Of a stretch of 28,114 nucleotides of DNA, positions 6,070-28,114 are shown piece by piece. Position 1 is the stretch's first letter; the number at the start of each line of letters is the position of its first letter. The DNA comes from Bryobacteraceae bacterium. GTDB lineage: Bacteria; Acidobacteriota; Terriglobia; Bryobacterales; Bryobacteraceae. Location of the stretch: contig JBEKHQ010000001.1 in assembly GCA_050012195.1 (NCBI GenBank), positions 1 through 28,114 on the forward strand. Direction: 5' to 3'. Position numbers and translations under genes: made by a program. The notes beneath the pieces are model-generated. The model had not been told where the DNA came from, searched no databases, and saw only the letters and a program-made list of their open reading frames with translations.

Positions 6070-6750
6070 CTAGTCGACCGAACCCAGACGTTCCGCTATG
6101 AGGGGGAACGCCTGATTTGTGAAATTGAGGCAGCGCGCCAGATTCTGTTCCGGAGTGGCGTCGCCTAACGGGGTTACCAAGCGAACCAGACTAACATCGG
6201 ATCGCTTATAGCGTAATAGATCGGGCAGCAGCCGAAGTTTCGCCCAATACTCTTCCGCCCACGTATGGCGATTGTTTTGATACCAATACAGCACGAAGAT
6301 ACTGTCGCCGCCTTTTTCCATTACATATTCGTTGACGGGAATGCCTTCGGGCCTGTCGCGGAGCGGCAAGATTCCAATCTTCGAAGATTTCACCAGCCAT
6401 CCGGATCCAGGCAGACAGATGCGGGGCGAATGAGGACCGTAGGCGTTTTGCAAGGATTTGAAATACGCAACGAAGAGGTTGATGGAGCTCTTGCCGTTTT
6501 CATCGACATAATCGCGCAAGATATATTCGTCCGGCTTCAGCGTGGCCGCTTCGCTGGCCGAGAGCTCGCGCTCCTCGCCGGATTGCCAGTTTCCGATCCG
6601 GGGAGGCAGGGAGTGCAGTCCCGGCAGGGGCAAGTCGCGCTCTACCACGTCTAAGCGGCGGGAACCTGCGGCCTGAGCCGCCAAGATGACGCAGATTACA
6701 AGGAACCAACCGCCGGGGACGCGAAAAGATCGCTGGACTGGGTCAGCCAC
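6070..6750 (-). CDS. epsI: Exosortase-associated EpsI family protein
   Basis: 'LFVAYFKS...HSPRICLPGSGW' and 'VLYWYQ' motifs, an N-terminal hydrophobic anchor, and position directly after the exosortase gene. Confidence 0.85.
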   Translation of the reverse strand: MADPVQRSFRVPGGWFLVICVILAAQAAGSRRLDVVERDLPLPGLHSLPPRIGNWQSGEERELSASEAATLKPDEYILRDYVDENGKSSINLFVAYFKSLQNAYGPHSPRICLPGSGWLVKSSKIGILPLRDRPEGIPVNEYVMEKGGDSIFVLYWYQNNRHTWAEEYWAKLRLLPDLLRYKRSDVSLVRLVTPLGDATPEQNLARCLNFTNQAFPLIAERLGSVD

Positions 6751-7651
6751 GGTGCGCCCTCCAGGACTTCTGGATCGATATCAATAGAATATGCACCAAC
6801 AGGCATCCGGCGGCCGCGGCGGCGATGCTCACGTAGCCGAAAGCCTCATGAGCTACTCCGGTGACTAGGGCGGGATCGTACTGACTCGCGATGCCGGTTG
6901 CAAGAATCCGAAGCGCGTTGCCTAAAATCGCGATCGGAATCGCCATCACTAGAATCAGCCAACGCATGCTCCGCTGTTCGACGAAAAAATAATTGTAGAT
7001 GACGCACATGAAAAATATGGCGGTCAGCGAACGAATCCCGCTGCAAGCTTCCTCCACCGACAACTTCACTCCCGGCAGCTCCAGAATGTTGCCCTCCCGC
7101 AAAACCGAGTAGCCCAGAACCTCGAGGAAAACCTCGCCCAAGCGGCTGGCGATTAATTGCAAGGACAAGGTCATGCGCTCGTAAATGAACGTCGGGGGCG
7201 CGATCATTAGAATCAGCGTGCCCAGCGGATACGCCAGTTCTTTCACCATGCGCCAGCCGAAGACCGCGGCGATCGCTCCCACCAGGGAGACCAGGACCGA
7301 TGTACGGCTTACCCAGATCCAATGGGCCGCAATGCCTAACATGGCTTGGAGAGCGCCCCAAACGAGCACCACGACCCCCCGCTTGGACGGCTCGATGGGA
7401 AGCGTCGCCAGCTTGTCGCGCTTCGTCCAGGCCATGTAGGCGGCGGCGGGAATCACCAAAATGCCGTGCTCCATGTTGGCGTAATCGTCAAACCAGCTCC
7501 CGTACAAACCCAGGAGTATCGGCCAGAACGCGATCAACAGAAGAAGCCCGATCACCACCGCTTGGACGGATGCAGGAACTTCGCTCATCCGCTGCAAACC
7601 GCGGCGCGGCACGGATTGTTCCGAAATTTTAGGTTCGACTGGAGTCGCCAT
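6743..7651 (-). CDS. epsH: Exosortase (EpsH family transpeptidase)
   Basis: Multi-TM protein with 'HGILVIP', catalytic-type Cys in 'VEEACSGIRSL', Arg in 'GNALRI' and His in 'HEAFG'. Confidence 0.9.
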   Translation of the reverse strand: MATPVEPKISEQSVPRRGLQRMSEVPASVQAVVIGLLLLIAFWPILLGLYGSWFDDYANMEHGILVIPAAAYMAWTKRDKLATLPIEPSKRGVVVLVWGALQAMLGIAAHWIWVSRTSVLVSLVGAIAAVFGWRMVKELAYPLGTLILMIAPPTFIYERMTLSLQLIASRLGEVFLEVLGYSVLREGNILELPGVKLSVEEACSGIRSLTAIFFMCVIYNYFFVEQRSMRWLILVMAIPIAILGNALRILATGIASQYDPALVTGVAHEAFGYVSIAAAAAGCLLVHILLISIQKSWRAHRG

Positions 7652-9917
7652 AATCGTAATAATACTGACGCTTTCGGTCGCCGCGCAGGTCGTAGTCGGT
7701 TAGCACGGTGCCGAGCAATGCGAGACCATCCTCCTGGATGCGTTGGTACGCTTCCATGGCGTTGGCCCGGTTGGTGACGCCGCAACGGAGCACTAGAATC
7801 AGCGCGTCGGCGAGCGGAGCGATAATGCGGGTATCCGCGACGTGCAGAATCGGCGGCGTATCCACCAGAATCATGTCGTAGCGTTTCTTGAGGAACTCGA
7901 AGATCTCGCGCAGACGGGGCGAGTACAGGGCGCGGGCCACGTTGGACGTACCCGGTCCGGAGCCATTAGCCAGCAGCGATAACTCAGGAAAGCCGGTAGC
8001 CGCCGCAAGACGATCCATCGCATATTCGCTCAGGGGAGAGTCCTCCGACAGCATGTCGACCAAGCCCCAATCGTTCGGCAGGCCGAACTTGCGATGCAGG
8101 TGCGGCCGTCGAAAATCCGCGTCCACCACCAGCACTCGCCGGCCGGTTTCGGCGAGGGCGATGCCCAAATTTTGGATGACCGTCGTTTTCCCTTCCGCGG
8201 GCCCGGGACTGGTGACGAGAATGATCTTTTGGGCCTTCCCGCTGGCCTGATTACGTAAGATGGACGCCAGAGTGCCCCGAAACGATTCGGTGACGAAGGA
8301 AGGACCGCTCTGCCAGGTAACCATGGCCGACGCGGGATTCTCTCCGTCGCCGTTGAGCGCCATACCCTTGGAATGCAGGTACGAACGCCAGGTGGCGACT
8401 CCGTTGGCATCCGCTCCGAGATTCGGAATGACGCCGAGCTCGGGCGCATTAAACATCTGGCGCGACATACCCGGCGCCCGGATACTGGTATCCATCCGTT
8501 CGCGCAGAAATGCCAACCCGCCCGCGATCACGATCCCCAGCAACGACCCAAAGGAGATATTCAGAACCGGCCGCGGCTTAAACGGAAGTTCCGGAGGCGC
8601 GGCCGCTTCCACGATACGGATGGGACTGGCCGGCACCGAGCTGTTTAACCCCGCTTCGCTCTGTTGCATCAGAAGCGACTGATAAACCTGATGCAGCGTA
8701 TCTGCCTCGCGCCGCAGAGCGTTGTACTGCGCAGCCTTGGCTGCTTCCGATCCCACGCGCTGGGATTGGCTGCCGTAATTCTTCGACAGCAGCCTCTCCT
8801 GGCTCAGCGCGGCTTCGTAATCGTTCTTGATCCGGCTGACCACGCTGCGGATTTCGTTCTGGTAGTCTTTTCGTACCTCAGCCAACTGGGCGTCCAATTG
8901 GCGGACCTTCTCATGCTTGGGGGTGTACTTGACCTCGAGCGCGGCCTTTTCCTGCTCGAGCCCGTTGATCTTGGCCTGGTGGCCTCGCAACGCGGCGTCG
9001 TCCAGAACCTCGCCCAGCGTCTCGGGAGGATTCTTGAGCGTAAGTTCATAGCGCGTCTGTTTGGCGATGCGGTCGGATTGAATTTTCGCCAGCTCGCCTT
9101 TCAATTGCGTCAGCTTGGTGTCGTCGAGCGTGGTGTCCTGGCCCGCGAACACATTGCCGGAAGCCTGCACGAAATCCCGCTGATGCTCCTCGGCTTCCTG
9201 CATCTTCGATTTGGTTTCCTCGATGGACGCCGCCAGCCACTCGCTGGTCCTTTGCGAGGATTGCATGCGCGACCGGGAATTGTCCTCCTGAAACTCGGAA
9301 GCCATCGAATTCAGAAACTGCGCGGCCACGTCCGGGCTGCTCGACTCGCAGCTCAGCTCGATCAAGCGGGTATGAATCACCGGCCTCGCGTCAAACGTCC
9401 CCATGGCCAGGCCAATGCCTTGACGGGCATTCTCGAGCGGATCTTGCGTAGCGGGGTGAATGCGCTGCCTCAACCGCGAAAAGAGGTCGCGTCCGGTGGG
9501 GGCCAGCGGCACGCTGTCTTGCTGCAAACGTTCTGCGCCGCGCTTGAGGAACGTCCCGCTGCGCAGTATGCTGACTTGAGTCTGGATGTCCACCTCCGTA
9601 CCTTCGGCGCTCTCCAAGCCGTTCTTGGTGTACGTGCCGCCGCCGTTACCCACTTCGAGCAACAAGCGCGTTTTATAGCGCGGAGAACTCAACACCACCG
9701 ACGCGAAGCCTCCCGCGGCCCCAACCAGCAACAATACCAACAGCAAGAACCAATGCCGGCGGATAATGCCCTTGATATCCGCCGATGGGGCGGTCTCCTC
9801 GGCGCTTGCCGCGGGAGACTGATAATACTGCCGCCCGTTCTCCACAATGACCGGTTTTTCGCCGTAGGGGATGAGATGATTGCGATCGTCCCCGGAACCA
9901 TTTGGAAGCAGATCCAT
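7629..9917 (-). CDS. wzc: Polysaccharide co-polymerase / BY-kinase (Wzc-like tyrosine autokinase)
   Basis: Two TM segments flank a coiled-coil periplasmic domain. Walker A 'SPGPAEGKTT', A' 'VVDADFRRP', Walker B 'ILVDTPP', and C-terminal Tyr cluster 'QYYYDY'. Start ATG 9917 follows GGAGG. Confidence 0.92.
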   Translation of the reverse strand: MDLLPNGSGDDRNHLIPYGEKPVIVENGRQYYQSPAASAEETAPSADIKGIIRRHWFLLLVLLLVGAAGGFASVVLSSPRYKTRLLLEVGNGGGTYTKNGLESAEGTEVDIQTQVSILRSGTFLKRGAERLQQDSVPLAPTGRDLFSRLRQRIHPATQDPLENARQGIGLAMGTFDARPVIHTRLIELSCESSSPDVAAQFLNSMASEFQEDNSRSRMQSSQRTSEWLAASIEETKSKMQEAEEHQRDFVQASGNVFAGQDTTLDDTKLTQLKGELAKIQSDRIAKQTRYELTLKNPPETLGEVLDDAALRGHQAKINGLEQEKAALEVKYTPKHEKVRQLDAQLAEVRKDYQNEIRSVVSRIKNDYEAALSQERLLSKNYGSQSQRVGSEAAKAAQYNALRREADTLHQVYQSLLMQQSEAGLNSSVPASPIRIVEAAAPPELPFKPRPVLNISFGSLLGIVIAGGLAFLRERMDTSIRAPGMSRQMFNAPELGVIPNLGADANGVATWRSYLHSKGMALNGDGENPASAMVTWQSGPSFVTESFRGTLASILRNQASGKAQKIILVTSPGPAEGKTTVIQNLGIALAETGRRVLVVDADFRRPHLHRKFGLPNDWGLVDMLSEDSPLSEYAMDRLAAATGFPELSLLANGSGPGTSNVARALYSPRLREIFEFLKKRYDMILVDTPPILHVADTRIIAPLADALILVLRCGVTNRANAMEAYQRIQEDGLALLGTVLTDYDLRGDRKRQYYYDYGDSSRT

Positions 9918-9922
9918 GATGT

Positions 9923-10270
9923 TTACTCGCCTCCCCGACCATTGCTCTCGGCTGAATTGGCGCCCGACGAGCACTGGGCGGTGCTCTCGGCGAAATCATC
10001 CAGACCCGCGAACGGAACCTTGCTGGGGTTCAGAATCTGCAACTGCTCGGTCACTTCCGCGATCAGCCTTTCCAGCCGGTGCATCTTGTCCGCCAATTCC
10101 TCGTCCTCGCGTTGCCGGTTACCGTCGGCGATCAGCCGCTGTACCGCGCTCCGAGCCAGATCCGATACGCTGCGGGCCCCTGCCTGTTCGCAAACGCTCA
10201 CAAATTGGCGAAATTCGTCCTCCGATACTCGGAAGTACACTAACCGCTCTCTCGGCTTTAATACTGCCAC
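9923..10270 (-). CDS. Small ribbon-helix-helix (CopG/MobC-like) putative DNA-binding protein with coiled-coil tail
   Basis: 'RLVYFRVSEDEFRQFVSVCEQAGARSVSDLARSAV' fits the RHH strand-helix-helix pattern. GTG start with GGAGG upstream; stop 5 nt before wzc. Confidence 0.7.
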   Translation of the reverse strand: MAVLKPRERLVYFRVSEDEFRQFVSVCEQAGARSVSDLARSAVQRLIADGNRQREDEELADKMHRLERLIAEVTEQLQILNPSKVPFAGLDDFAESTAQCSSGANSAESNGRGGE

Positions 10271-10344
10271 AAACTTGCCCTCCGGTTTTTCAGCTGCATG
10301 GTCCCCTCAAAACCTAACCTCACCCCCATGACAGGGTCACTAGG

Positions 10345-10359
10345 GCAAGCTACCGCCCT
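10345..10359 (-). promoter_or_regulatory. Possible sigma54 (-24/-12) promoter for the EPS/exosortase operon
   Basis: Minus strand reads AGGGCGGTAGCTTGC: GG-N10-GC with TTGC at -12. The -24 element is an imperfect match to TGGCACG. Confidence 0.35.
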
Positions 10360-10418
10360 TTCTGTCCCAATCATGGTGCGACTAGACGCTCCCAAGCGCG
10401 TCCAAAATCCTCTCTCTA

Positions 10419-10472
10419 TGACAGTTGTCAGCGCTTACTCATGGAGTATGCAGGATCGTATGACAAGTGTCA
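10419..10472. promoter_or_regulatory. Two TGACA-N2-TGTCA palindromes, candidate transcription-factor sites
   Basis: tgacagttgtca at 10419-10430 and tgacaagtgtca at 10461-10472, both preceded by TA, 42 bp apart in a divergent intergenic region. Confidence 0.6.
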
Positions 10473-10549
10473 ATGAACTAACGGGCTAGGTTTCCTATTG
10501 AGGGTACTAGTATTAGCAATCTTGATGAAAAATAGGAGACACTAGGACC

Positions 10550-11458
10550 ATGCAGCCCTCGCCGTTTGCGGCTCTGGCGATCCTCGGTCTAGCTCCTTGG
10601 CTGGTACAGGCCCAGGCTAAAACTAAGACTGCCCCCCCGGACCGGACCAACTTTGTGAATTGTCTCCAGGGACTCTCGGGTTGCGATCTTTCGCTGCTCG
10701 CTTCCGACGAACTCGCGAAAGTGGGCGCCGAGTCCAAGAAGCGCAATCTGGATTACTGTTTGAACGGCTCCGCGCTCTGCGATCCGACGCGTCTCAGCGC
10801 GGCGGAGGCGAGTTCGGTTCAAGCCGCCCATTATCGGCGCAATTTAGAAAAGTGCATGAACGGAGAGAACGCCTGCGATGCGCTGTCACTCGCCGCCAAG
10901 GATATGGCTGCGGTGAATTCCGCCAAGGCCCAGCGAAATTTCGACAAATGCGTCAGCGGAGCTCCAACTTGCGACGCCACTGTTCTGACGAAAGAACAAG
11001 CCGCCTCTGTACAGGCCGCCTCTCAGCGCCGTAATTTCGACCGCTGCCTGAACGGATCTTCCCTGTGCGATCCCTTGCGGCTTGCGCCCAATGAAGCCGC
11101 GGCGGTACGGGCGGCCGCTCTCCGGCGGAATCGGGACCGTTGCATGGAAGGTTCGTCCACTTGCAATCCCCTCGCTTTAACGGAATCAGAGGCCAAAGAC
11201 GTTCGCGCCGAGGTGCACCGCCGCAATCTCGCGAACTGTCTGAACGGATTGGCGAACTGCGATCCGGTGTCGCTTCAGAATTCGGACCTGGAAAACGCGC
11301 GGGCGGCGTTTCGCCAGCGCAACGTGGAAGCCTGCAAGCGGGGGCTTCCCGCCTGTGATCCGTCGGTTCTCACGGGCCCCGAGATGGCCAGCGTCATGGC
11401 GGCGTTCCAAGCGCGCCGCAGCCGGATGGAACGATTAAAGCCGCCCGCCAAACCCTGA
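10550..11458 (+). CDS. Secreted cysteine-repeat protein of unknown function (8 x 32-aa repeats)
   Basis: Signal-peptide-like N-terminus ending ...VQAQA, GGAG ribosome site upstream, and regular repeats. Confidence 0.85.
   Translation: MQPSPFAALAILGLAPWLVQAQAKTKTAPPDRTNFVNCLQGLSGCDLSLLASDELAKVGAESKKRNLDYCLNGSALCDPTRLSAAEASSVQAAHYRRNLEKCMNGENACDALSLAAKDMAAVNSAKAQRNFDKCVSGAPTCDATVLTKEQAASVQAASQRRNFDRCLNGSSLCDPLRLAPNEAAAVRAAALRRNRDRCMEGSSTCNPLALTESEAKDVRAEVHRRNLANCLNGLANCDPVSLQNSDLENARAAFRQRNVEACKRGLPACDPSVLTGPEMASVMAAFQARRSRMERLKPPAKP
10649..11416 (+). repeat. Eight tandem 32-aa (96-nt) coding repeats, consensus N-xxx-C-L-x-G-xxx-C-D-P-xx-L-xxx-E-xxx-V-xx-A-xx-R-R
   Basis: Read directly from the translation; every unit carries CX6C at the same offset. 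Confidence 0.9.
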
Positions 11459-11502: not shown

Positions 11503-12447
11503 ATGACACGAGCTTCCGTCGCCCCCGTCATTCTCCTTGGGCTTTTCATCCCACTTGCGCGCGGCGCGAACGCCGACTTCAATTTGCAAAAGATCGGCCC
11601 CGGCGTTTGGGCCGCGATCGTGAACGATGCTGGAAAAGCCGGGGGCAACGCCGGATTCGTGGTCGGCGACGATGGAGTTGCGGTGATCGACACCTTTCAA
11701 GACCCGGAGCCTGCCCAGGCGCTCGCGGCCGAGATTCGAAAAATCACCAAGCTGCCGATTCGGTTTGTCGTCAACACGCACTATCACCTGGATCATGTCA
11801 ACGGCAACGATGTATTCGCCGCCGCGGGAGCCGTCATTGTTGCGCACCGGAACGTGCGCGCTTGGATGCGGACGGAAAACATCAAAATGCTCGATCCACC
11901 CGTGACGAAGGAGAAAACGGCCCGGGTGGCATCGCTGACGCTGCCGAACGTGGTCTACGACGATCGCATCGATCTCTATCTCGGATCGCGCCGAGTCGGG
12001 GTTCGATACTATCCCGGCCACACCGGCGGCGATTCGGTGGTCTGGGTACCGGACGCGCGCGTGGTGTTCTGCGGCGACATGCTGTGGAAGGATCATATTC
12101 CGAACCTGATTGACGCTTCGACCGCGGCCTGGGTGGCGACGCTCGACGCATTGCCGAAAGACTACGGCGTGTCCACCTGGGTTCCGGGCCATGGGGGCGT
12201 GGCCGACGCCCGCGATGTTCGGGCCTTCCGTGGTTATCTCGCGGATCTCCGCGACTCGGTTCGCGCGGAACAAGTCCGCGGGAAGTCCGGCGACGCGCTG
12301 GTGAACGCGATCCTGCCCGGCCTCCAGGCGAAGTACGGGAAATGGGGCTTCTTCAACGACTACGCGCGCGCCGGCATCGAACAAATCGCGGACGAGCTTT
12401 CGGGAAAAAAGAAAGTGCCGCGGCCAGTCGCCGTCGGCGCCCGGTGA
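11503..12447 (+). CDS. Metallo-beta-lactamase fold hydrolase, probably secreted
   Basis: 'NTHYHLDHVNGN' (HxHxDH), 'GHTGGD', 'GDML' and 'PGHG' motifs, plus an N-terminal signal peptide. Substrate unknown. Confidence 0.88.
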   Translation: MTRASVAPVILLGLFIPLARGANADFNLQKIGPGVWAAIVNDAGKAGGNAGFVVGDDGVAVIDTFQDPEPAQALAAEIRKITKLPIRFVVNTHYHLDHVNGNDVFAAAGAVIVAHRNVRAWMRTENIKMLDPPVTKEKTARVASLTLPNVVYDDRIDLYLGSRRVGVRYYPGHTGGDSVVWVPDARVVFCGDMLWKDHIPNLIDASTAAWVATLDALPKDYGVSTWVPGHGGVADARDVRAFRGYLADLRDSVRAEQVRGKSGDALVNAILPGLQAKYGKWGFFNDYARAGIEQIADELSGKKKVPRPVAVGAR

Positions 12448-19002: not shown

Positions 19003-20316
19003 ATGGCCGGACGAACCCGCACCACCAAGAAACTGGCGCAGCGCATCAATCTGAATTACTTCAAGACCCTGCGCGGCATCCCGCGCTGGCGGCGCATCCT
19101 GTCCGGCGTTTTGGTCGCGCTCGGCGTCGCGTGGCTGGGCTGGTACGCGCTGGCGGGCACTCCCAAGCCCTATAACGCCGGACCGGTTTCGCACACCCAC
19201 ACCCTGATCGGAGGCAAGTGCGAAACCTGTCACGCGACCCAGGCCGGCTTCGAGCACAGCGCCACCGATAAAGCCTGCCTGACTTGTCACGACGGTCCCA
19301 TTCATCACGCCGAACAGACTTTCTCGCCGGCCTGCGCCAGCTGCCACGTCGAGCATAAGGGCGCGTTTCGGCTGGCCGCCACCACGGACGAAGCCTGCAC
19401 GCAATGCCACGCCGATCTGGCGGCCAAGGATAAGAACGCGCCGCCGCGTTTTGTTTCAAACATCCGCGGCTTCGACGGCACGCATCCCCAGTTCGCGGTG
19501 CTGCGCTCGGGCCGCATCGATCCGGGCACCATCAAGTTCGGCCACCAGGTGCATTTGAAGAAGGATTTACGAGGGCCGCACGGGCCGGTGCAACTGCAAT
19601 GCGCCGATTGTCATCGCCCGCAAGGCTTGAACCAACCCTGGCCGTTCAGTATCGCGCAGATCGCTCCGGTATCGTTGTCGGCCGCCCTGCCCGACCGATC
19701 CTACATGGAGCCGATCAACTACGAAAAGCATTGCGCCACCTGTCACACATTGCAGTTCGACCGGCGCTTCTCCGAAAGCGTGCCGCATAAGGAGCCCAAG
19801 GTGGTGTACGATTTCGTGGTCGAGAAACTGACCGGCTACATCGCGGAGCATCCCACCCAGATTCCGCTGGTGGACGAGCCGGACAAGCGGCTGCCCAGCC
19901 GTCCGCCGCAGCCGCCGGCGCGCAACGCTCGCGAATGGGTGGCCGAGCGGCTGACCGATTCCGAGTTCCTGTTGTGGCGCAAGGCCTGCAAGGAATGCCA
20001 TCTGGAAACCTTTCCGAACGGCAACGACGCGCTGCCGGTGGTAGCCAAGGCGGCCATCACGGCGCGCTGGCTGCCGCATTCCAACTTCGATCACGAAGCG
20101 CACCAGATGGTGGCCTGCGCTGCTTGTCACGCCAAGGCGCCCACCAGCAAGGAGACCTCCGACGTCCTGATCCCCGGCGTCCAGGTCTGCCGCGACTGCC
20201 ATCATGCCGGTAAGGAAGCCGCCGAAGCCCGCTGCTTCGAGTGTCACAACTATCACGACTGGACCAAGGAAAAACCCCCCGTCGGCAAGTTCGCCGTTTC
20301 CCAGCTCGGCCAATAA
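19003..20316 (+). CDS. Membrane-anchored decaheme cytochrome c
   Basis: Ten CXXCH motifs counted (CETCH, CLTCH, CASCH, CTQCH, CADCH, CATCH, CKECH, CAACH, CRDCH, CFECH). Basic N-terminus followed by one hydrophobic helix. Confidence 0.92.
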   Translation: MAGRTRTTKKLAQRINLNYFKTLRGIPRWRRILSGVLVALGVAWLGWYALAGTPKPYNAGPVSHTHTLIGGKCETCHATQAGFEHSATDKACLTCHDGPIHHAEQTFSPACASCHVEHKGAFRLAATTDEACTQCHADLAAKDKNAPPRFVSNIRGFDGTHPQFAVLRSGRIDPGTIKFGHQVHLKKDLRGPHGPVQLQCADCHRPQGLNQPWPFSIAQIAPVSLSAALPDRSYMEPINYEKHCATCHTLQFDRRFSESVPHKEPKVVYDFVVEKLTGYIAEHPTQIPLVDEPDKRLPSRPPQPPARNAREWVAERLTDSEFLLWRKACKECHLETFPNGNDALPVVAKAAITARWLPHSNFDHEAHQMVACAACHAKAPTSKETSDVLIPGVQVCRDCHHAGKEAAEARCFECHNYHDWTKEKPPVGKFAVSQLGQ

Positions 20317-20349: not shown

Positions 20350-23300
20350 TTGCCCCCAGAAACATCCGTTCCGCAAACGATGAATGAGTTATTGGCGCTG
20401 CTCCGTTCGGTCCCTTTCCTGGCTCCATTGACGGATTCCGAACTCGAGCATATCGCTCAACAATCCAGCAGGGAGACCGCGGCGCCCGGCCGCGTAATTG
20501 TGCGCGAGGGCGAAATCGGCGAATGCATGTACGTGATCGTGCGCGGCGCGGTACAGATCCTCACAACTTCTTTCGACGGATCGGACGTCGTGCTGGCGCG
20601 CCTGGAAGCCGGTCAATGGTTCGGCGAACAAGCGCTTCAGCCGGGCGGAACGGGCCGGCGCAACGCCAGCGTCCGGGCGATCGAGGAGTGCAGCCTGGTG
20701 GTGCTGTCGCGCGACCTTCTGCGGGATGTGCTCGCGCAGGACTCCCAGTTGCTGGTCGAGTTGCGCAAGAGAGGAGCAGAGCAGCGAGCGCTGCGCAACA
20801 ACCGCCTTCGGGAGGGAGTGTTTGCGACCCTGGGCTTGGAGTCAGGCTCCCTCGAATATCGCGTAGAGAAATATCCCGCGGGCGAGGCGGTCTTTCATCA
20901 GGGAGACCGCGGAGACCGGCTGTATCTGATCCTGAGCGGGCGCGCGCATGTGGAGCGAACCGAGGGCGGCGAGCGCAGGATTTTGGCCGAGCTGCTGCCC
21001 GGGCAATTTTTCGGCGAGCTCGCAATATTGCGCGACACGCCGCGCAACGCGACCGTGGCGGCAGCCGACGAGCTCGAAGTGGTGAGCCTGGACGGGGAAT
21101 GGTTCCGGCGCGCGCACGATCAAAATCCGGCGCTGCGGTCGTTGATGGAGTCGCTCGAGAGCATGTACCTGCTCCCGCATCGCGGCCTGCTCACGCTGCA
21201 GACGGGACAGTTGGACGGCAAGCCGGCGCTGACGGCGGTGCACAATCTTCCGGACGGCAGGCGCGTCATGAGCACGCGGCTTACCGGCGCGCCCGCGTTC
21301 ACCGCGCAAGTGCTGGACGCGGAGAAATCCGGCGCCGCGTCCGTGATCTACGAGAAGCCGGAGCACGGAATCTACCGCGAGCTGCAGGTCGGCGGCGGCA
21401 AACTGACGGGCCTGGAATCGCAGGGCGAGTGGACCGGCTTGGGCGACATGTTCGGCCGGTTGCTCGACGGCGCGCCGGTGGAGGAATGGCAACTCGCGCT
21501 GTTCCGCGAGCGCGGCGATTTCCGGGTACAGGAAGTTCAGCCGCTCTATGAAGAGAAAGAGATCATCTGCACCTGCACTCACACCAGTTGCGGCAAGATC
21601 ATGCAGGCCATTCGCGACAACTGCACCACCGTGGAACAGGTGGCCAAGCGCACCAACGCGACGCGGGTCTGCGGCGGCTGCATGCCCTTGGTGCGCGAAC
21701 TGCTGGGACAGTCGGATTGGACGGCGGCGCACGTGATCGAGCGCGTCCCGCTGGCGGAGGACGTGCGATCTTTTCGCATCCGCCCGATCGCGGGCGAGTG
21801 CCGGGATTGGCTGCCGGGACAGCACCTGGTGCTCCAGGCGCGCATCGATAATCGTTGGGTGCAGCGCGCCTACACTCTCTCGTGCGCTCCCGGCGGGAGC
21901 TGGTACGAGATCACCGTGAAACGCGAGCCGCAAGGCGTGTTCTCGCGCTGGTTGTTCGATCGCATGCCGCAAGATGCAATGCTGCGCGTGTCGGAACCGG
22001 GTGGCGAGTACCATCTGCCCGCCGATCAGACCGCGGACGTCGTGTGCCTGGTGGGCGGTATCGGCGTAACTCCGGCGCTCGCGATGGCGCGGACTTTGAG
22101 CGCGCGGCCCAGGCCCTTCCGGCTGCATGTGCATTATTGCGCCTCCCAGCCGGACGACCTGGTGGGCCGCGACGAACTGGCGGCGCTGTCACAAAAGAGC
22201 GAACGCATTTCGGTCGAATTCCGCGCCACGCGACTGGAAGGCCGCTTCGGGCTGGAGCAGGTTCGCGAAGTCGCTAATCGTTTTCCGGGCGCGCTCTATT
22301 TCCTGTGCGGAAGCCCGCCCTATATGGATGCCGTGGGCGGGTATCTGCGGGAATGCGGAGTGCCGGAGGAGCGCATTCGCGTCGAGGTTTTTATCGCCGC
22401 GGGCGCCAAGGTGGCTGAGCAGGCGGCCCCCAAACATTGCCCGGTGGATCACGCGGCGCGCGCTTTGGAAACTCCTGCCGCGCCGCTCGAACAGGCGCGC
22501 GCGATGCTGGGCGATTGTTATCGCGAGGCCAACGCTCCGCCGTCGGTTTTCGAGGCGCGCTGGCGCAAGGTAGAGGACGAATTTCAGCTCGACCAGACCT
22601 ATAGCCAGACCTTCGAAGAGCTGGTGTACGCGTCGCGCGTCGCCTGGAGGAACAGCGTCAAATGCATCGGCCGATTGTTCTGGCAAGGGTTGGCGGTCCG
22701 CGATTTCCGCCATGTTCAAACCGAGGACGAGATGTTCGAGGCGATTTTCTCGCACATCGAAACGGCCATGAACGGCGGGAATCTGCGGCCGCTGATCACG
22801 GTCTTCCCGCCCGCGGACAAGGACGGCCACAAGCCGCGCATCTGGAATCCGCAGATTTTTCGCTACGCGGGCTACCGGATGCCGGAGGGCCCTGTACTGG
22901 GCGATCCCGCGAATGTCGAGCTCACCGAAGCCGCGATCCGTTTGGGCTGGACGCCTCCCGCCGCGCGCGGCCGTTTCGACCTGCTGCCGGTGATCCTGGA
23001 AGCGGGAGGCCGTAAGCCGCAGTGGCGCGAGATTCCCAAGCACTTGGTGGTCGAAGTGCCGATTCTGCATCCGCGCTTCGAAGGCTTCCAAAATCTGGGA
23101 TTGAAGTGGTACGCGCTGCGGCTGGTGGCGGGCATGCTGCTCGACGCCGGCGGAGTGCAATACTCGGCCGCGCCCTTTAACGGCTGGAGCATGGGCACGG
23201 AAATCGGCGCCCGGATCTTCAGCGACGTCAATCGCTACAACCAGTTGCCCGAGGTCGCAAAAATCCTGGGACTTGATACCGAAAGCGATCGAACCTTGTG

Positions 23301-23568
23301 GCGCGACCGGGCGCTGGTGGAGCTCAACGTCGCTGTTCTGCACTCCTTCGACAAAGCAGGGATCAAGATCATGGATCACCACGCGGCGAGCGAAGCCTTC
23401 ATGAAGTTCGACGATCAGGAGAGCCGCGCCGGCCGACCCGTACACGCGCGCTGGAGCTGGATCGTGCCGCCGATTTCAGGCTCCGCGACACCCGTATTTC
23501 ATCAGGAATGGACGGATGTCGAGATCAAACCGAACTATGTTGCCCTGCCCGAGCCGTGGAAGGCTTGA
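20350..23568 (+). CDS. nos: Nitric oxide synthase fusion: 2x cNMP-binding, BFD-like [2Fe-2S], FAD/NAD(P)H reductase (FNR-like), NOS oxygenase
   Basis: cNMP cassettes 'FGEQAL..RRNASV' and 'FGELAIL..PRNATV'. BFD 'ICTC...VCGGC'. Reductase 'RAYTLS', 'GVFSRWL', 'GGIGVTP' and 'LCGSPPYM'. NOSoxy 'AWRNSVKCIGR' (heme Cys), 'RIWNPQIFRYAGY', 'PFNGWSMGTEIG', 'IMDHH' and 'WSWIVPPISGSATPVFHQ'. Start is TTG 20350 or ATG 20380. Confidence 0.92.
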   Translation: MPPETSVPQTMNELLALLRSVPFLAPLTDSELEHIAQQSSRETAAPGRVIVREGEIGECMYVIVRGAVQILTTSFDGSDVVLARLEAGQWFGEQALQPGGTGRRNASVRAIEECSLVVLSRDLLRDVLAQDSQLLVELRKRGAEQRALRNNRLREGVFATLGLESGSLEYRVEKYPAGEAVFHQGDRGDRLYLILSGRAHVERTEGGERRILAELLPGQFFGELAILRDTPRNATVAAADELEVVSLDGEWFRRAHDQNPALRSLMESLESMYLLPHRGLLTLQTGQLDGKPALTAVHNLPDGRRVMSTRLTGAPAFTAQVLDAEKSGAASVIYEKPEHGIYRELQVGGGKLTGLESQGEWTGLGDMFGRLLDGAPVEEWQLALFRERGDFRVQEVQPLYEEKEIICTCTHTSCGKIMQAIRDNCTTVEQVAKRTNATRVCGGCMPLVRELLGQSDWTAAHVIERVPLAEDVRSFRIRPIAGECRDWLPGQHLVLQARIDNRWVQRAYTLSCAPGGSWYEITVKREPQGVFSRWLFDRMPQDAMLRVSEPGGEYHLPADQTADVVCLVGGIGVTPALAMARTLSARPRPFRLHVHYCASQPDDLVGRDELAALSQKSERISVEFRATRLEGRFGLEQVREVANRFPGALYFLCGSPPYMDAVGGYLRECGVPEERIRVEVFIAAGAKVAEQAAPKHCPVDHAARALETPAAPLEQARAMLGDCYREANAPPSVFEARWRKVEDEFQLDQTYSQTFEELVYASRVAWRNSVKCIGRLFWQGLAVRDFRHVQTEDEMFEAIFSHIETAMNGGNLRPLITVFPPADKDGHKPRIWNPQIFRYAGYRMPEGPVLGDPANVELTEAAIRLGWTPPAARGRFDLLPVILEAGGRKPQWREIPKHLVVEVPILHPRFEGFQNLGLKWYALRLVAGMLLDAGGVQYSAAPFNGWSMGTEIGARIFSDVNRYNQLPEVAKILGLDTESDRTLWRDRALVELNVAVLHSFDKAGIKIMDHHAASEAFMKFDDQESRAGRPVHARWSWIVPPISGSATPVFHQEWTDVEIKPNYVALPEPWKA

Positions 23569-23675: not shown

Positions 23676-23930
23676 GAAATACCCTGCTGAAGAACTTGCA
23701 GAACCTTGGTACCATCGGGAGGTTACCTGCGCACCCACAAGTGGACGCGGGAGGAAGTCGTAAATCATTGAATTTGCTTTGGCTGAACCCATCCACACGC
23801 TGCGGCGTTTCGAAGTTTCCGCGCCCAATCAATAGGCCCTTGGCGGCAGTACGCCTACATTTAATTTGGGTAGGTGCTCCAGTGACGCCCCTAACCCAAT
23901 GGTTTAACTTTGGGGAAGGGAAATTTAGAG

Positions 23931-26900
23931 ATGCTTAAGCCTTTACATGGCTTATTGTTAGCGGGTTTGCTGGCTGCGCCGGTGCTGTTTGGCCAGGATC
24001 CTCTATGCACCGGCAGCCAAAGCTCGAGTGGCGAAACTTTCGAAAGCAACGGGGGCGCCGGTACGTTTTCCGGAACCGTTACCACTTACTGCGGCCCCCT
24101 GACGTCGGCCACACCCAGCGCGCCCTGGATCAGCATCACCTCGGCGACCGGGACCTTCTCCATCCAGTTCTCGGTTTCTCCGAATACAACGGGATCGAGC
24201 CGTTCGGGCAGTATTACGGCGAAGTTCACAAACCCCGGGATCGAATCTTTCACCTTCTCGGTGACGCAGTATGCAAAGCTGACCTTTACTAGTTCTTCAC
24301 TACCCGTCGGCGCCGTCGGATATCCTTATTCCGCTCAGTTGCAGGTCTCGGGAGGAAGCGATGACTCGCGAAGCTTCTCCATCATTTCAGGCTCGCTTCC
24401 GCCCGGTTTATCCTTATCGGGTTCAACGATCGGCGGAACGCCGACCGGATCGGGAACGACGGCTTCTTTTACCGCGCAAGTCACCGATATCGACCCCAGC
24501 TCCGGCAATCCGTTTTCCGCAACTCAGGGCTTCGAAATAACGATCAATCCCCGATTTACAGCCTCCACAACGTCGCTGCCAGGCGCAACCGTTGGAGTAA
24601 GTTACTCGGCGTCAGTCTCGGCCAGCGGAGGATTTGCGCCGTATGGCTGGTCCCTGATTTCAGGAGCATTGCCCTCGGGATTATCGCTGAATTCCGGTAC
24701 CGGAGCGATCAGTGGAATTCCCGGCGCCAACTCTCAAGGGTCGTATCCGATCACAATCCAGGTGTCCGATCTGCGCGGCGAGACTTTGAACGTACCGCTC
24801 ACGCTGAATGTCGCTGGAACTCCGATTCCCTTAACGATTACGACCTCTACCTTGCCGTCGGCGACTGCGGGAGTGCCTTATAGCGCGTCGCTCACGGCCA
24901 ACGGCGGGACGACGCCCTATGCCTGGTCGGCAGCGGGTCTTCCATCCTGGTTGAGCGTTTCGCCTGCCGGCCAGGTCTCCGGCACACCGCCGGCGGGATC
25001 GGCGGGAAGCTTTCCCTTCACCGCAAAAGTGCTGGACGCCATCGGCCATTCCGCCTCCGCCCCCCTGTCGTTGCAGGTGAACCTTCCTCCCCCTGGTCCT
25101 TTGAGCATTGTCACTACTTCGCCGCTCCCTGATGGAAGAGAAGGCAGCGTCTACAATTTCGGCTTCGTTGCAACCGGCGGAAAAGCCCCATACGAGTGGT
25201 CGGCCACCGGCCTTCCGGCATTCTTGAACCTGGCGCCGAGCGGCAGTCTCACCGGGATACCGTCGGTGGGTTCCGCGGGTCCCTACAGCTTTACTGCGAC
25301 GGTTAGCGACGCCTTGGGAAACAAAGTCAGCGGAACATTCGGCCTGAAAGTGGACTCTTTGACGTCGCTAGGGATCACGACATCCTTGTTGCCGCCCGCC
25401 ACGGTAGGTGTGCCCTATAGCGTTGCGTTCGCGGCCACCGGCGGGACCTTGCCCTATGCGTGGTCGGCTTCCGGCTTACCGTCATGGTTGAGCCTTTCCC
25501 AAGCCGGCCAGCTCTCCGGCACGCCCCCGGCGGGAGCCCCGGTCTCGCTTAGCTTCACGGTGAGCGTCGGCGACTCTGCGGGAAATAAGGCGAGCGGGAT
25601 GTTCAGCCTGACGGTGAACCCGCTGAAATCCACCGTGCTGGTGACCATCATCGTTGCGTCGCCCCTGCCGCAAGCCACCGAAAATCAGCCTTACACAGTT
25701 ACATTCAGCGCCAGCGGCGGCACCGCTCCGTACACTTGGACGGGAGTGGGAGTGCCCTATTGGGCGAATCTCTCGCCGGCGGGCGTGCTCAGTGGAACTC
25801 CGCCGTTCGGCTCCGCGGGCGCCACGCTACTCACGGTCACCGCCACCGATTCGGCGAACAACAGCCAAAGCACGCAAGTCACGCTGGTGGTATTGTCGGC
25901 GAACGGCCCCACCATTACGACGACGTCTCCTCTGCCGAACGCGGCCGCCGGCGCCAATTATCAAATTACGTTGAGCGCCACGGGAGGAACACCGCCCTAC
26001 CAATGGTCGGGTTCGGGCATTCCAGCCGGACTCACGTTGACATCGAATGGACAACTGAGCGGCACTCCCACTACTCAGGGCGTCAATACCGTGACCGCGC
26101 AAGCCACCGACGCGGACCATAACGTGGCGTTCGCGGCGCTGAACTTACAGGTTGCGCCTTCCGCGATCACGATCATCACGCCTACCCCGCTGCCCGCCGG
26201 CGAGGTGAGTGTTTCATATTCGACCGTGTTTCAATCCAGCGGCGGAACTCGGCCACAGTCGTGGAGCCTTGTTTCCGGAACAATACCGCCCGGCACGACT
26301 CTCGATTCGAGCGGAGTTCTGAGCGGCACTCCAACACAGACCGGAGTCTTCGACTTCACCGTAAACGTCTCCGACGAGGGCGTGGCCGACGTCGAGAAGA
26401 CCAAGGCCGTAAAGGCGAACGTCGCCGGTGTTGCCGGCGCCAGCGCCCCGTTCGAAATCACGGTAACGCCTTACGTAACGCCGGATCTAATTCTTTCTTG
26501 CGGCAGCCTGTCGTTCGCGGCGCCCAGCCAAGGGACTGCGTCCCTGCAAACGTGTTCCGTCATCTCGACCGTTTACAACTCGATCCCATTCTCGGTGAGC
26601 GCGAATGTGCCATGGCTGTCGGTGTCGACCGGCGGAATCACGCCGGGCAATCTCGAAATAGGCGCGAATCCCGCCGGTCTCTCGGACGGGGCTCACGCCG
26701 GCACGATCACCGTGTCGTCCCCGGGCGTGACCTCCAAGACTATCCAAGTATCGTTCACCACCAACGCCGAGCTCGAGGCTTCCGGAATCCTGCAAGTTTC
26801 GCCCTCCACTCTGACGCTCTCCAGCCCTGGGTCTCCGGCACTCAACCAGACTCTCTTCCTTCAGAATCTAGGGCAAGGCAATCTGCCTTTCACGGTTTCG

Positions 26901-28114
26901 ACCGACGTTCCCTGGCTGGTAGTAAGCCCACAGTCTGGAACGCTCAGCGGGGAGGGGGCCCTCACGCTACAGGCTACGATTTTGACGCCGAGCCTCGCGC
27001 CGGGCGCATACCTGGGACACATCGAGATCGATTCGCCCTACGGCAGCTTCCAGATCCCGGCCAGCCTGCTGATTTCAGGACAAACGTCAAATTTGGGATC
27101 GCGGCCGAGAATGATACTGAGCCGGGACGGCATCCTGCTGCGTGCACGGCAGGGGAATGGGGTGTCCGGACCGGTCCCGACAACCTTCGAGATTACAGGC
27201 TCCACTAGCACCACGATCAACTATACGGTCAGCCAGGTAGGCGGAGAAGGCTGGCTGACGCTGGTAAGCGACCCGCAAGGCACCGCCTCGAGCACGGTTA
27301 CGGGAACGGTGGCTTTCAAGGCTACGAGCGCTCAATTGCCGAAGGGCGCGTATTATGCGATCTTGCGCGTCACTGCGGCCGAGCCCTTCGACTCGCCTTT
27401 GGATTTCCTGGTGGTCCTGGATGTAGAAGACGCCTCCACGCCGGCCACGCCGGATTCCTACCCCAGCGGCTTGCTATTTGCGGCTGCGGCCGGAACCAAT
27501 CCGCCCACTCAGATGGTGGCCGTCTACACCAGCAACGACAAGCCCATATCGTACCAAGTGGCGATCGAGACGGAGAGCGGCGGAAATTGGCTTTCGGCCA
27601 CGCCGCTGGCCGGCTTCCTCGCTACCCTAACGCCGGCGCAGCTTACCGTGTCGGTGAATACTTCCAATTTGACGCCCGGAATCTACCGGGGCGGGGTCAA
27701 TGTCTCGATCAGCAACCTGGAAGTGCGCACGGTGAACGTCACCCTGATCGTTCCGGACTTGGGTTCTTCCTCGAGCTCGTCGTCGCATGCGGTCTCGAAC
27801 CCGGCTTCGAGCGCCTCCGCCACTCCGGCGGCTGCGTCAACCTGTACGCCCGCCAATCTGGTGTTAACGGAAACAGGTTTGCCCGGCAGTTTCTCGACTC
27901 CCGCCGCGTGGCCCAGTTACATCGCCGTCCAGCTTGCAGACGATTGCGGCAATCCGGTCTTCGGCGGCTACGTGGTAGCCAATTTCTCGAACGGCGATCC
28001 ATCGCTCTCGCTGGCTGCGAACACTGCGACCACGGCGCTGTATTCCGCCACCTGGACACCAGTAAACCCCGTGGCGCAACTCACGATCACGATGCAAGCC
28101 AGCGCTTCGGGACT
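23931..28114 (+). CDS. Large secreted surface protein with BACON-like and eight putative-Ig (He_PIG-like) domains; truncated by window end (>1390 aa)
   Basis: Not in the ORF track because there is no stop codon in the window. Manual translation: signal peptide MLKPLHGLLLAGLLAAPVLFGQ; one BACON-like unit (PWISIT...SRSGSIT); eight 'T.LP.A..G.PYS....A.GG..PY.WS...LP..L.L...G.LSGTP' repeats; four 'WL.VS'-type BACON-like units; then 'CTPANLV...PAAWPSYIAVQLADDCGNPV...ANFSNGDP'. Confidence 0.9.
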   Translation, partial: MLKPLHGLLLAGLLAAPVLFGQDPLCTGSQSSSGETFESNGGAGTFSGTVTTYCGPLTSATPSAPWISITSATGTFSIQFSVSPNTTGSSRSGSITAKFTNPGIESFTFSVTQYAKLTFTSSSLPVGAVGYPYSAQLQVSGGSDDSRSFSIISGSLPPGLSLSGSTIGGTPTGSGTTASFTAQVTDIDPSSGNPFSATQGFEITINPRFTASTTSLPGATVGVSYSASVSASGGFAPYGWSLISGALPSGLSLNSGTGAISGIPGANSQGSYPITIQVSDLRGETLNVPLTLNVAGTPIPLTITTSTLPSATAGVPYSASLTANGGTTPYAWSAAGLPSWLSVSPAGQVSGTPPAGSAGSFPFTAKVLDAIGHSASAPLSLQVNLPPPGPLSIVTTSPLPDGREGSVYNFGFVATGGKAPYEWSATGLPAFLNLAPSGSLTGIPSVGSAGPYSFTATVSDALGNKVSGTFGLKVDSLTSLGITTSLLPPATVGVPYSVAFAATGGTLPYAWSASGLPSWLSLSQAGQLSGTPPAGAPVSLSFTVSVGDSAGNKASGMFSLTVNPLKSTVLVTIIVASPLPQATENQPYTVTFSASGGTAPYTWTGVGVPYWANLSPAGVLSGTPPFGSAGATLLTVTATDSANNSQSTQVTLVVLSANGPTITTTSPLPNAAAGANYQITLSATGGTPPYQWSGSGIPAGLTLTSNGQLSGTPTTQGVNTVTAQATDADHNVAFAALNLQVAPSAITIITPTPLPAGEVSVSYSTVFQSSGGTRPQSWSLVSGTIPPGTTLDSSGVLSGTPTQTGVFDFTVNVSDEGVADVEKTKAVKANVAGVAGASAPFEITVTPYVTPDLILSCGSLSFAAPSQGTASLQTCSVISTVYNSIPFSVSANVPWLSVSTGGITPGNLEIGANPAGLSDGAHAGTITVSSPGVTSKTIQVSFTTNAELEASGILQVSPSTLTLSSPGSPALNQTLFLQNLGQGNLPFTVSTDVPWLVVSPQSGTLSGEGALTLQATILTPSLAPGAYLGHIEIDSPYGSFQIPASLLISGQTSNLGSRPRMILSRDGILLRARQGNGVSGPVPTTFEITGSTSTTINYTVSQVGGEGWLTLVSDPQGTASSTVTGTVAFKATSAQLPKGAYYAILRVTAAEPFDSPLDFLVVLDVEDASTPATPDSYPSGLLFAAAAGTNPPTQMVAVYTSNDKPISYQVAIETESGGNWLSATPLAGFLATLTPAQLTVSVNTSNLTPGIYRGGVNVSISNLEVRTVNVTLIVPDLGSSSSSSSHAVSNPASSASATPAAASTCTPANLVLTETGLPGSFSTPAAWPSYIAVQLADDCGNPVFGGYVVANFSNGDPSLSLAANTATTALYSATWTPVNPVAQLTITMQASASG

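Follow-up and report, generated by a model that had tools for sequence, protein, structure and literature searches.

A cysteine-paired helical repeat protein, predicted to be exported and encoded beside an exosortase operon in Bryobacteraceae

The stretch of DNA analysed here, referred to as the window, comprises 28,114 nucleotides from a Bryobacteraceae bacterium (contig JBEKHQ010000001.1, positions 1 to 28,114 of the forward strand). At positions 10550–11458 it carries the gene of a repeat protein, here called REP, which is composed almost throughout of eight units of 32 residues with one Cys-x6-Cys pair each. REP belongs to a previously unnamed and uncurated family of exported helical repeat proteins for which there is no Pfam or NCBIfam model. 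In most Bryobacteraceae loci with enough flanking sequence its gene is divergent from an exopolysaccharide (EPS)/exosortase operon. The anatomy of the repeat, the family, the predicted helix-loop structure of the units and the synteny are observations of this analysis. With respect to function, we tentatively consider REP to be an exported, stapled helical scaffold which would act as an accessory of the Wzc/exosortase system, a reading whose chances we put slightly below even.

Repeat anatomy and the family of REP

The following features were read from the REP gene and its start:
10534..10538, plus strand: AGGAG Shine-Dalgarno-like site, 11 nt ahead of the REP ATG, by direct reading of the sequence
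10550..11458, plus strand: REP, repeat-protein gene, identified by its open reading frame (ORF) and translation; 302 amino acids (aa) plus stop; orthologues at 28 loci of Bryobacteraceae and at 3 of other classes
10550..10618, plus strand: signal-peptide-like N-terminus, residues 1–23, with A-Q-A before K24 and without a lipobox Cys
10649..11416, plus strand: eight tandem 96-nt (32-aa) units, starting at 10649, 10745, 10841, 10937, 11033, 11129, 11225 and 11321

When cut from residue 34 onwards, REP falls into eight consecutive units of exactly 32 residues with zero indels, and its 16 Cys are all arranged in C-x6-C pairs. This bears out the original prediction of eight phased CX6C units. The units follow the consensus N-x3-C-x2-G-x3-C-D-P-x2-L-[TS]-x2-E-x3-V-x2-A-x3-R, in which N1, C5, G8, C12, L17 and R32 are invariant across all eight and D13, P14, E21, V25, A27/28 and R31 are majority residues. 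Mean identity among the units is 41% for the protein and 50% for the DNA, and Tandem Repeats Finder did not report a tandem repeat at REP when applied to the DNA. A DNA-level repeat was therefore rejected in favour of a repeat at the protein level only, and the values indicate an old repeat under selection as protein, as opposed to a recently duplicated stretch of DNA. A unit profile built from all eight recognized each of them with 56–64 bits (E 1e-14 to 1e-17); searched against the 4.1-Mb, 75%-complete metagenome-assembled genome (MAG) that holds the window, it gave no match besides REP.

Residues 1–23 contain a hydrophobic core by their sequence, and every orthologue has an equivalent hydrophobic N-terminus. 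The segment resembles signal peptides of type I and not those of lipoproteins; in a test for a lipobox, residues 1–37 were free of Cys, and the first one, C38, is located within unit 1. The mature part comprises about 280 residues, and no enzymatic domain was found. The earlier assignment of REP as secreted and devoid of a catalytic domain is thus supported. As a putative PEP-CTERM substrate REP was negative: at its C-terminus (...QARRSRMERLKPPAKP) neither a P-E-P motif nor a hydrophobic span was found, and the orthologues are alike.

A Pfam scan of REP gave nothing above threshold. The best model was DUF7739 (PF24881) with 23.3 bits against a gathering cut-off of 27 bits; the genome-level search gave 16.3 bits, and the model was rejected. 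It was seen at E ≤ 0.01 in 9 of 26 orthologues (best E 6.8e-6), in all cases below the 27-bit gathering score. These matches span about 50 residues across a unit boundary and most likely stem from an Ala-rich helix composition in common. NCBIfam yielded only a chance match of 10.5 bits and no named exosortase accessory family (e.g. PrsT, EpsI), and among PDB sequences no match was obtained at E ≤ 10. That REP does not match TPR, Sel1, ankyrin or pentapeptide patterns, as had been noted from the sequence beforehand, agrees with the profile searches: none of these models was detected on REP at E ≤ 10, and scanning 26 orthologues singly did not reveal Sel1 (PF08238) at E ≤ 0.01. Membership in TPR (PF00515 and relatives) was rejected because no TPR family was seen at E ≤ 10 and the unit has 32 and not 34 residues. 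In the sources, members of the family are annotated solely as "hypothetical protein", and in literature on CX6C periplasmic repeats and on exosortase in Acidobacteria nothing relevant was found.

A word-indexed homologue search with REP retrieved two fragments only, so that an exhaustive profile search was needed. ESM Atlas returned only unnamed Acidobacteriota clusters (0.82–0.84, below trust level). We ran hmmsearch with the REP unit profile against 1.84 billion representative proteins and obtained 375 protein clusters at E ≤ 1e-3, 124 of them with E ≤ 1e-10. The hidden Markov model made from the eight units thus detects a family of its own, and no existing Pfam or NCBIfam family covers the repeat. 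Nearly all of the best 150 family members have CX6C with a 32-residue period; a few have CX7C with 33 or CX8C with 34 residues. In 179 distinct ungapped units the conserved positions agree with those of REP, the invariant ones being partly favoured by the profile itself. REP follows the family pattern N-x3-C-x2-G-x3-C-[DN]-x3-L-[TS]-x2-[EQ]-x3-V-x2-A-x3-R with its 32-aa period. The family occurs in the following architectures:
signal peptide and repeats alone
transmembrane segment, Pro-rich linker, repeats
repeats and TonB_C
transmembrane segment, PG_binding_1, C-terminal repeats
FGE-sulfatase, coiled coil, repeats
signal peptide, repeats, transmembrane segment, prokaryotic RING finger (P0010, P0053, P0118)

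The repeats are located on the predicted extracytoplasmic side in every architecture, and all stand-alone forms have a signal peptide. Fusion to TonB_C, PG_binding_1, FGE-sulfatase and transmembrane-plus-RING partners suggests that the repeat is an extracytoplasmic module.

The related loci obtained with a 4-sequence alignment as query all come from Bryobacteraceae/Bryobacterales MAGs (Acidobacteriota). Exactly 8 x 32 residues with zero indels were found in 22 of 27 orthologues, at 40–73% identity; unit counts among the orthologues are 7, 8 or 9. One locus, L058, was left out of the counts owing to its frame-shifted reading. Since it alternates between frames with several frameshifts (L058:10001-10891), we rejected it as a divergent, very basic orthologue; it represents either a pseudogene or long-read indel errors. 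For the 22 eight-unit orthologues we found lower entropy between orthologues than between the units of one protein. Mean entropy was lowest for unit 8 (0.78 bits) and unit 2 (1.07 bits) and amounted to 1.4–1.7 bits for units 1 and 3–7. Among the orthologues unit 8 shows the pattern NVEACKRGLPACDPSLLTGPEMASV.AAFQ.R, and the unit-for-unit register extends to proteins of other classes. Such unit-specific conservation is unexpected for a featureless spacer and suggests specific contact surfaces, which favours a binding scaffold.

Near-identical DNA was present in peat and bog metagenomes from at least 14 studies. In peat metatranscriptome contigs of three runs we detected pieces of REP (10688–10838, 11005–11163 and 11081–11233), the intergenic region and the small upstream gene. 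As these RNA contigs provide neither strand, ends nor level and DNA carry-over is possible, they are weak evidence for transcription of REP; conversely, REP stretches that no RNA contig covers are not evidence of non-transcription.

Predicted structure and the cysteine pair

AlphaFold2 modelled the single REP sequence with a mean predicted local distance difference test (pLDDT) value of 84.5. With an alignment of 26 orthologues the mean rose to 89.2, reaching 95–97 throughout the repeats, while residues 1–27 had values below 50. The five models made with this alignment scored 87–89 and were identical in secondary structure. Both AlphaFold2 models have one helix of 20–21 residues per unit, extending from about position 19 to position 7 of the next unit. 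According to the models the helix begins at a [TS]18-x-x-[EQ]21 capping box and stops at the invariant G8; the connection to the next helix would consist of seven residues outside the helix (G8 to about P14), a turn of three residues and two further ones. When the consensus is laid on the model, C5 falls into the final turn of the helix and C12 into the loop, and Ala/Val at unit positions 22, 25 and 28 would form a stripe of small residues. A helical protein with one CX6C loop per unit had been anticipated, and both models are indeed predicted to be all-helical with one loop per unit. The models gave no support for the proposed solenoid: they match no known solenoid, and only two-helix pieces align.

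Foldseek comparison of both models with the PDB gave nothing at E ≤ 0.001 (best E 0.06), with TM values of about 0.1 and a root-mean-square deviation (rmsd) of about 25 Å. An exhaustive VIA-align comparison over 48,161 chains reached best Z-scores of 4.8 and 4.5, far under the usual values for helical proteins. Structural alignments were limited to two-helix pieces of about 55 residues, e.g. from HAMP or bHLH. The prediction is thus confident locally and has no significant PDB neighbour, a null result that does not prove a new fold. We read the models as an elongated array whose overall shape is unlike that of any solved repeat protein.

Sel1-like repeat (SLR) proteins, including HcpB and HcpC of Helicobacter, are exported proteins made of short helical repeats with a Cys pair per repeat. 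REP resembles them in being an exported array of helical tandem repeats with one Cys pair each that presumably staples the repeat, in having no enzymatic domain and in the binding or scaffold role that is presumed for both. The SLR structure 6onw_B was also the best Foldseek row for the single-sequence REP model, at values that are not significant (E 0.064, TM 0.14). With the alignment-based model 6onw_B was not among the top rows, and the consensus sequence is unrelated. Whereas the SLR unit has 36–44 residues forming an antiparallel A/B helix pair, the REP unit has 32 residues with one long helix and a loop; for this reason, and because no profile matched, membership in Sel1/Hcp was rejected. 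TPR scaffolds of polysaccharide secretion such as AlgK, PelB, BcsC, PgaA and the PEP-CTERM-system protein PrsT resemble REP in being all-helical repeat proteins of the periplasm whose genes accompany those for EPS export, and AlgK appeared among the non-significant fold rows for the REP models. In contrast to these scaffolds, REP has no TPR signature or lipobox, differs in unit length and helix count, carries Cys pairs and is far smaller; TIGR02917, the model for the TPR lipoprotein PrsT, did not match REP. The only low-rmsd alignments were to two-helix units of HAMP (4cq4, 4gn0, 3lnr; 2.6–3.0 Å over 54–56 residues, Z 4.1–4.2). Their Z-scores are far below significance, and HAMP is cytoplasmic, dimeric, without Cys and without sequence similarity to REP.

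Within each unit C5 and C12 are most likely joined by a disulfide that pins the loop to the helix end, because REP is predicted to be exported and the spacing varies from CX6C to CX8C. This variable spacing, the odd unit counts (7, 9) and the fact that neither His nor Met is conserved are more compatible with a stapling disulfide than with metal binding. In particular, counts of 7 and 9 speak against metal coordination by four Cys drawn from adjacent unit pairs.

The exosortase operon and the shared control region

Upstream of REP, on the opposite strand, the EPS operon begins with the following genes:
9923..10270, minus strand: small conserved first gene of the operon, 115 aa, with a ribbon-helix-helix-like pattern (RLVYFRVSEDEF...RSVSDLAR)
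7629..9974, minus strand: Wzc-like chain-length determinant/tyrosine autokinase (Pfam Wzz, GNVR, AAA_31; TIGR01007 122 bits, above cut-off)
6743..7651, minus strand: exosortase of the EpsH family (PF09721 189 bits; TIGR02602 163 bits, above cut-off; XrtA below cut-off), without subtype assignment
6070..6750, minus strand: EpsI (DUF3485), exosortase partner, by family match

The complete order on the minus strand is small gene, Wzc-like gene, exosortase, EpsI, two glycosyltransferase family 4 (GT4) genes, a Wzy_C-like gene and a flippase-like gene. The small 115-aa protein looks ribbon-helix-helix-like from its sequence; it had no match in Pfam or NCBIfam and no significant one when its profile was compared with PDB sequences. 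Of 101 Bryobacteraceae genomes sampled, 73 have relatives of it, and multiple copies are frequent.

The divergent orientation of REP to the EPS/exosortase operon had been stated correctly before. We found it in 22 of about 25 Bryobacteraceae loci with enough flanking sequence, where REP is divergent from an operon of small gene, Wzc, EpsH, EpsI, GT4 and GT4. Synteny of REP and operon is kept down to 40–55% protein identity. Two genomes show an altered arrangement in which REP is still located within 3–6 kb of Poly_export/Wzc. In G070 a GT4 gene and a Poly_export gene sit between REP and the operon, and a gene for a 777-aa TPR protein is found two genes from REP. In G049 REP shares the strand of a NusG paralogue, the small gene, Poly_export and Wzc, which follow 5 kb downstream of it. 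When examined across all loci, the postulated link to EPS loci therefore held within Bryobacteraceae and did not extend to the homologues in other classes, which are unlinked. On the other side of REP, 45 nt after its end, starts the gene of a secreted metallo-beta-lactamase-fold hydrolase (11503–12447, plus strand). It is SoxH-related (TIGR04559 149 bits, below cut-off) and keeps its place by REP only in the closest relative, L038.

REP and the operon share an intergenic region with these elements:
10271..10549, no strand: shared control region of REP and the EPS operon, about 280 bp, with conserved blocks across 17 loci (intergenic alignment)
10445..10473, minus strand: sigma70-like promoter of the EPS operon, TTGACA at 10473–10468, 17 nt, CATACT at 10450–10445, on the two most conserved blocks
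10346..10357, minus strand: GGCGGTAGCTTG in the predicted operon leader, about 80 nt downstream of the promoter; block 10345–10370 is conserved in 17 Bryobacteraceae loci
10419..10430, no strand: operator-like palindrome TGACAGTTGTCA, just downstream of the predicted start, in a conserved block
10461..10472, no strand: palindrome TGACAAGTGTCA, overlapping the -35 of the operon promoter
10504..10513, no strand: GTACYAGTAY element, conserved, some 40 nt ahead of the REP ATG

Two TGACA-N2-TGTCA palindromes thus cover the -35 of the operon and the region past the predicted start, an arrangement that resembles an operator, and the small ribbon-helix-helix-like protein may bind to them. The leader element GGCGGTAGCTTG equals GGCGGTAGnnTG, which we take to be the ops/JUMPStart consensus of E. 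coli RfaH. It can be read as an ops/JUMPStart-like element or as a sigma54 -24/-12-like site (GG-N10-GC), the two readings being mutually exclusive. Genome-wide, GGCGGTAGnnTG was not enriched (10 matches versus 31 for the control), and the two other identical copies of GGCGGTAGCTTG in the genome are both located inside ORFs. The genome of the window encodes a NusG paralogue (G000:C132:2884-3159; L060:1276-1842, minus strand), located by a glycosyltransferase family 2 (GT2) gene and the gene of a large Ig-like repeat protein and not beside secE/rplK. The NusG paralogue of G049 (L021:14308-14913) is encoded directly upstream of the small gene, Poly_export and Wzc. Both are candidates for operon-specific antiterminators.

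Possible roles of REP

Putting the structural and genomic data together, REP would be exported via Sec, and its mature part of about 280 residues would be built of the eight units throughout. In each unit an Ala-rich helix of about 21 residues is predicted to run from the S/T-x-x-E cap to the invariant Gly, and a Cys-x6-Cys ring of eight residues and a D-P turn would connect it to the next helix. An intra-unit disulfide pinning the loop to the helix end would make the array stiff and elongated. In a sub-clade of the Bryobacteraceae the stand-alone eight-unit form is fixed beside the Wzc/exosortase/EpsI operon. There REP could serve as a periplasmic binding scaffold or adaptor, accessory to EPS export, and dock by means of units that are each conserved in their own right, units 2 and 8 foremost.

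Several observations weigh against a scaffold tied to the exosortase system. The predicted template modelling scores of the REP models were 0.55–0.63 (0.63 with the alignment). The Dsb inventory is equivocal as to the REP disulfide: DsbA-like Thioredoxin_4 proteins are found in all four carrier genomes (3–7 each in G000, which holds the window, G060, G049 and G070), DsbB was not found in any of the four, and VKOR was present in G060 only and not found in two 99%-complete carriers. REP itself was detected in 4 of 100 sampled Bryobacteraceae genera and, at the level of the phylum, in 4 of 400 genomes sampled. At the Bryobacteraceae loci L051 and L053 no EPS gene lies closer than 10 kb to REP, and three carriers outside the family encode 8–9-unit REP-like proteins beside Crp and a radical SAM protein, HipA and an integrase, and GroEL, respectively. 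In the 99%-complete genome G061 REP was not found at all, while the operon small gene-Wzc-EpsH-EpsI-GT4-GT4-Wzy is present at 52–72% identity; here (L064, G061:C94:307300-327200) a same-strand 494-aa gene is located upstream of the operon where REP otherwise stands. The patchy distribution and the operon of G061 show that these bacteria can do without REP, and a gene order inherited by relatives may explain part of the linkage. REP is therefore at most a lineage-specific accessory.

These points lend some weight to the view that REP is a generic structural or spacer rod of the cell envelope without a functional tie to EPS, its position being inherited synteny. The module is joined to partners as unrelated as TonB_C, PG_binding_1, FGE-sulfatase and transmembrane plus RING, homologues of other classes are not EPS-linked, G061 manages its operon without REP, and the linked loci all belong to one family and hence are not independent. 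However, synteny is retained to 40–55% protein identity, the shared control region with its back-to-back promoter and operator elements is strongly conserved, and REP is still near the locus in G070 and G049 despite their rearranged gene order. Unit-specific sequences and a fixed count of eight would also be unexpected for a spacer, and we judge this explanation unlikely, if well worth keeping in mind. A bolder version of the scaffold takes the 32-residue CX6C unit as a new architecture, a rod with one helix and a stapled loop per repeat and without a solved relative, and the eight-unit form as a periplasm-spanning strut or ruler that would couple the inner-membrane Wzc/exosortase/EpsI to an outer-membrane export pore in Bryobacteraceae as a new lineage-specific component. 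It appears quite unlikely to us. Thiol chemistry offers another reading, in which the CX6C pairs are reduced and REP binds metal (Zn, Cu, Fe, Hg), as the original prediction had also considered, or acts as a periplasmic redox buffer or sensor. The 16 regularly spaced Cys with an adjacent invariant Asp/Asn are in line with it, as are the searches that did not find DsbB in four carriers or VKOR in two 99%-complete ones. Yet a precise chelate geometry would hardly go with a spacing that changes between CX6C, CX7C and CX8C in an otherwise conserved unit, and with 7, 8 or 9 units Cys4 sites from unit pairs are not obligatory. His or Met partners were not found at conserved positions, all carriers have DsbA-like proteins, and metal-resistance or transport genes are not conserved beside REP, all of which makes a metal or redox role improbable.

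The original prediction had considered binding of polysaccharide through the basic repeat ends; the R-R/Q-R helix ends would then form a positively charged ridge for anionic EPS produced by the adjacent operon. Besides the linkage of the REP gene to the EPS locus, the mature net charge of +4 to +11 (pI 8.2–9.1) in most Bryobacteraceae orthologues is compatible with this. But in three intact orthologues the net charge is -3 to 0, so that purely electrostatic polyanion binding is not a conserved property. R32 is invariant in all architectures of the family, even where EPS genes were not seen. This suggests that R32 serves the structure, e.g. by pairing with D13. As aromatic platforms were likewise not found at conserved positions, and the EPS linkage fails outside Bryobacteraceae and the operon of G061 stands without REP, we have little confidence in REP as a polysaccharide binder. 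The same small chance is given to REP as a periplasmic regulatory partner of the Wzc autokinase or of a sensor kinase controlling the operon. REP-type repeats form the extracytoplasmic part of the transmembrane-RING proteins, and operator-like palindromes are common to REP and the operon; but no sensor kinase is conserved beside REP, and the argument is one from architecture alone.

Bacteria of soils and sediments commonly have exosortase/PEP-CTERM polysaccharide systems, whose mechanism is poorly understood. A conserved, exported, non-enzymatic protein such as REP gives a handle on the assembly or regulation of exosortase loci. The Acidobacteriota that abound in peat are difficult to cultivate and matter for carbon turnover and the aggregation of soil. 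With several hundred clusters in several architectures, the REP repeat is a reasonable choice for curation as a new family and for experimental structure work, and short cysteine-stapled helical repeats are attractive as protein-engineering scaffolds.

Further genes of the window were noticed apart from the REP locus. Between 14220 and 18998 there are long ORFs of 369, 237, 722 and 978 aa without a Pfam or NCBIfam match, some of which overlap on opposite strands. At 20350–23568 (plus strand), preceded by the gene of a multihaem cytochrome c (19003–20316), a 1072-aa fusion is encoded that combines two cyclic-nucleotide-binding domains, a BFD-like 2Fe-2S domain, an FAD/NAD reductase and a nitric oxide synthase (NOS) oxygenase (496 bits). 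Judged by these domains, its product may be a self-sufficient bacterial NOS with cyclic-nucleotide gating. The last gene (23910–28112, plus strand, open 3' end) encodes more than 1400 aa with seven He_PIG Ig-like domains and BACON domains and represents a large surface/adhesin-like protein.

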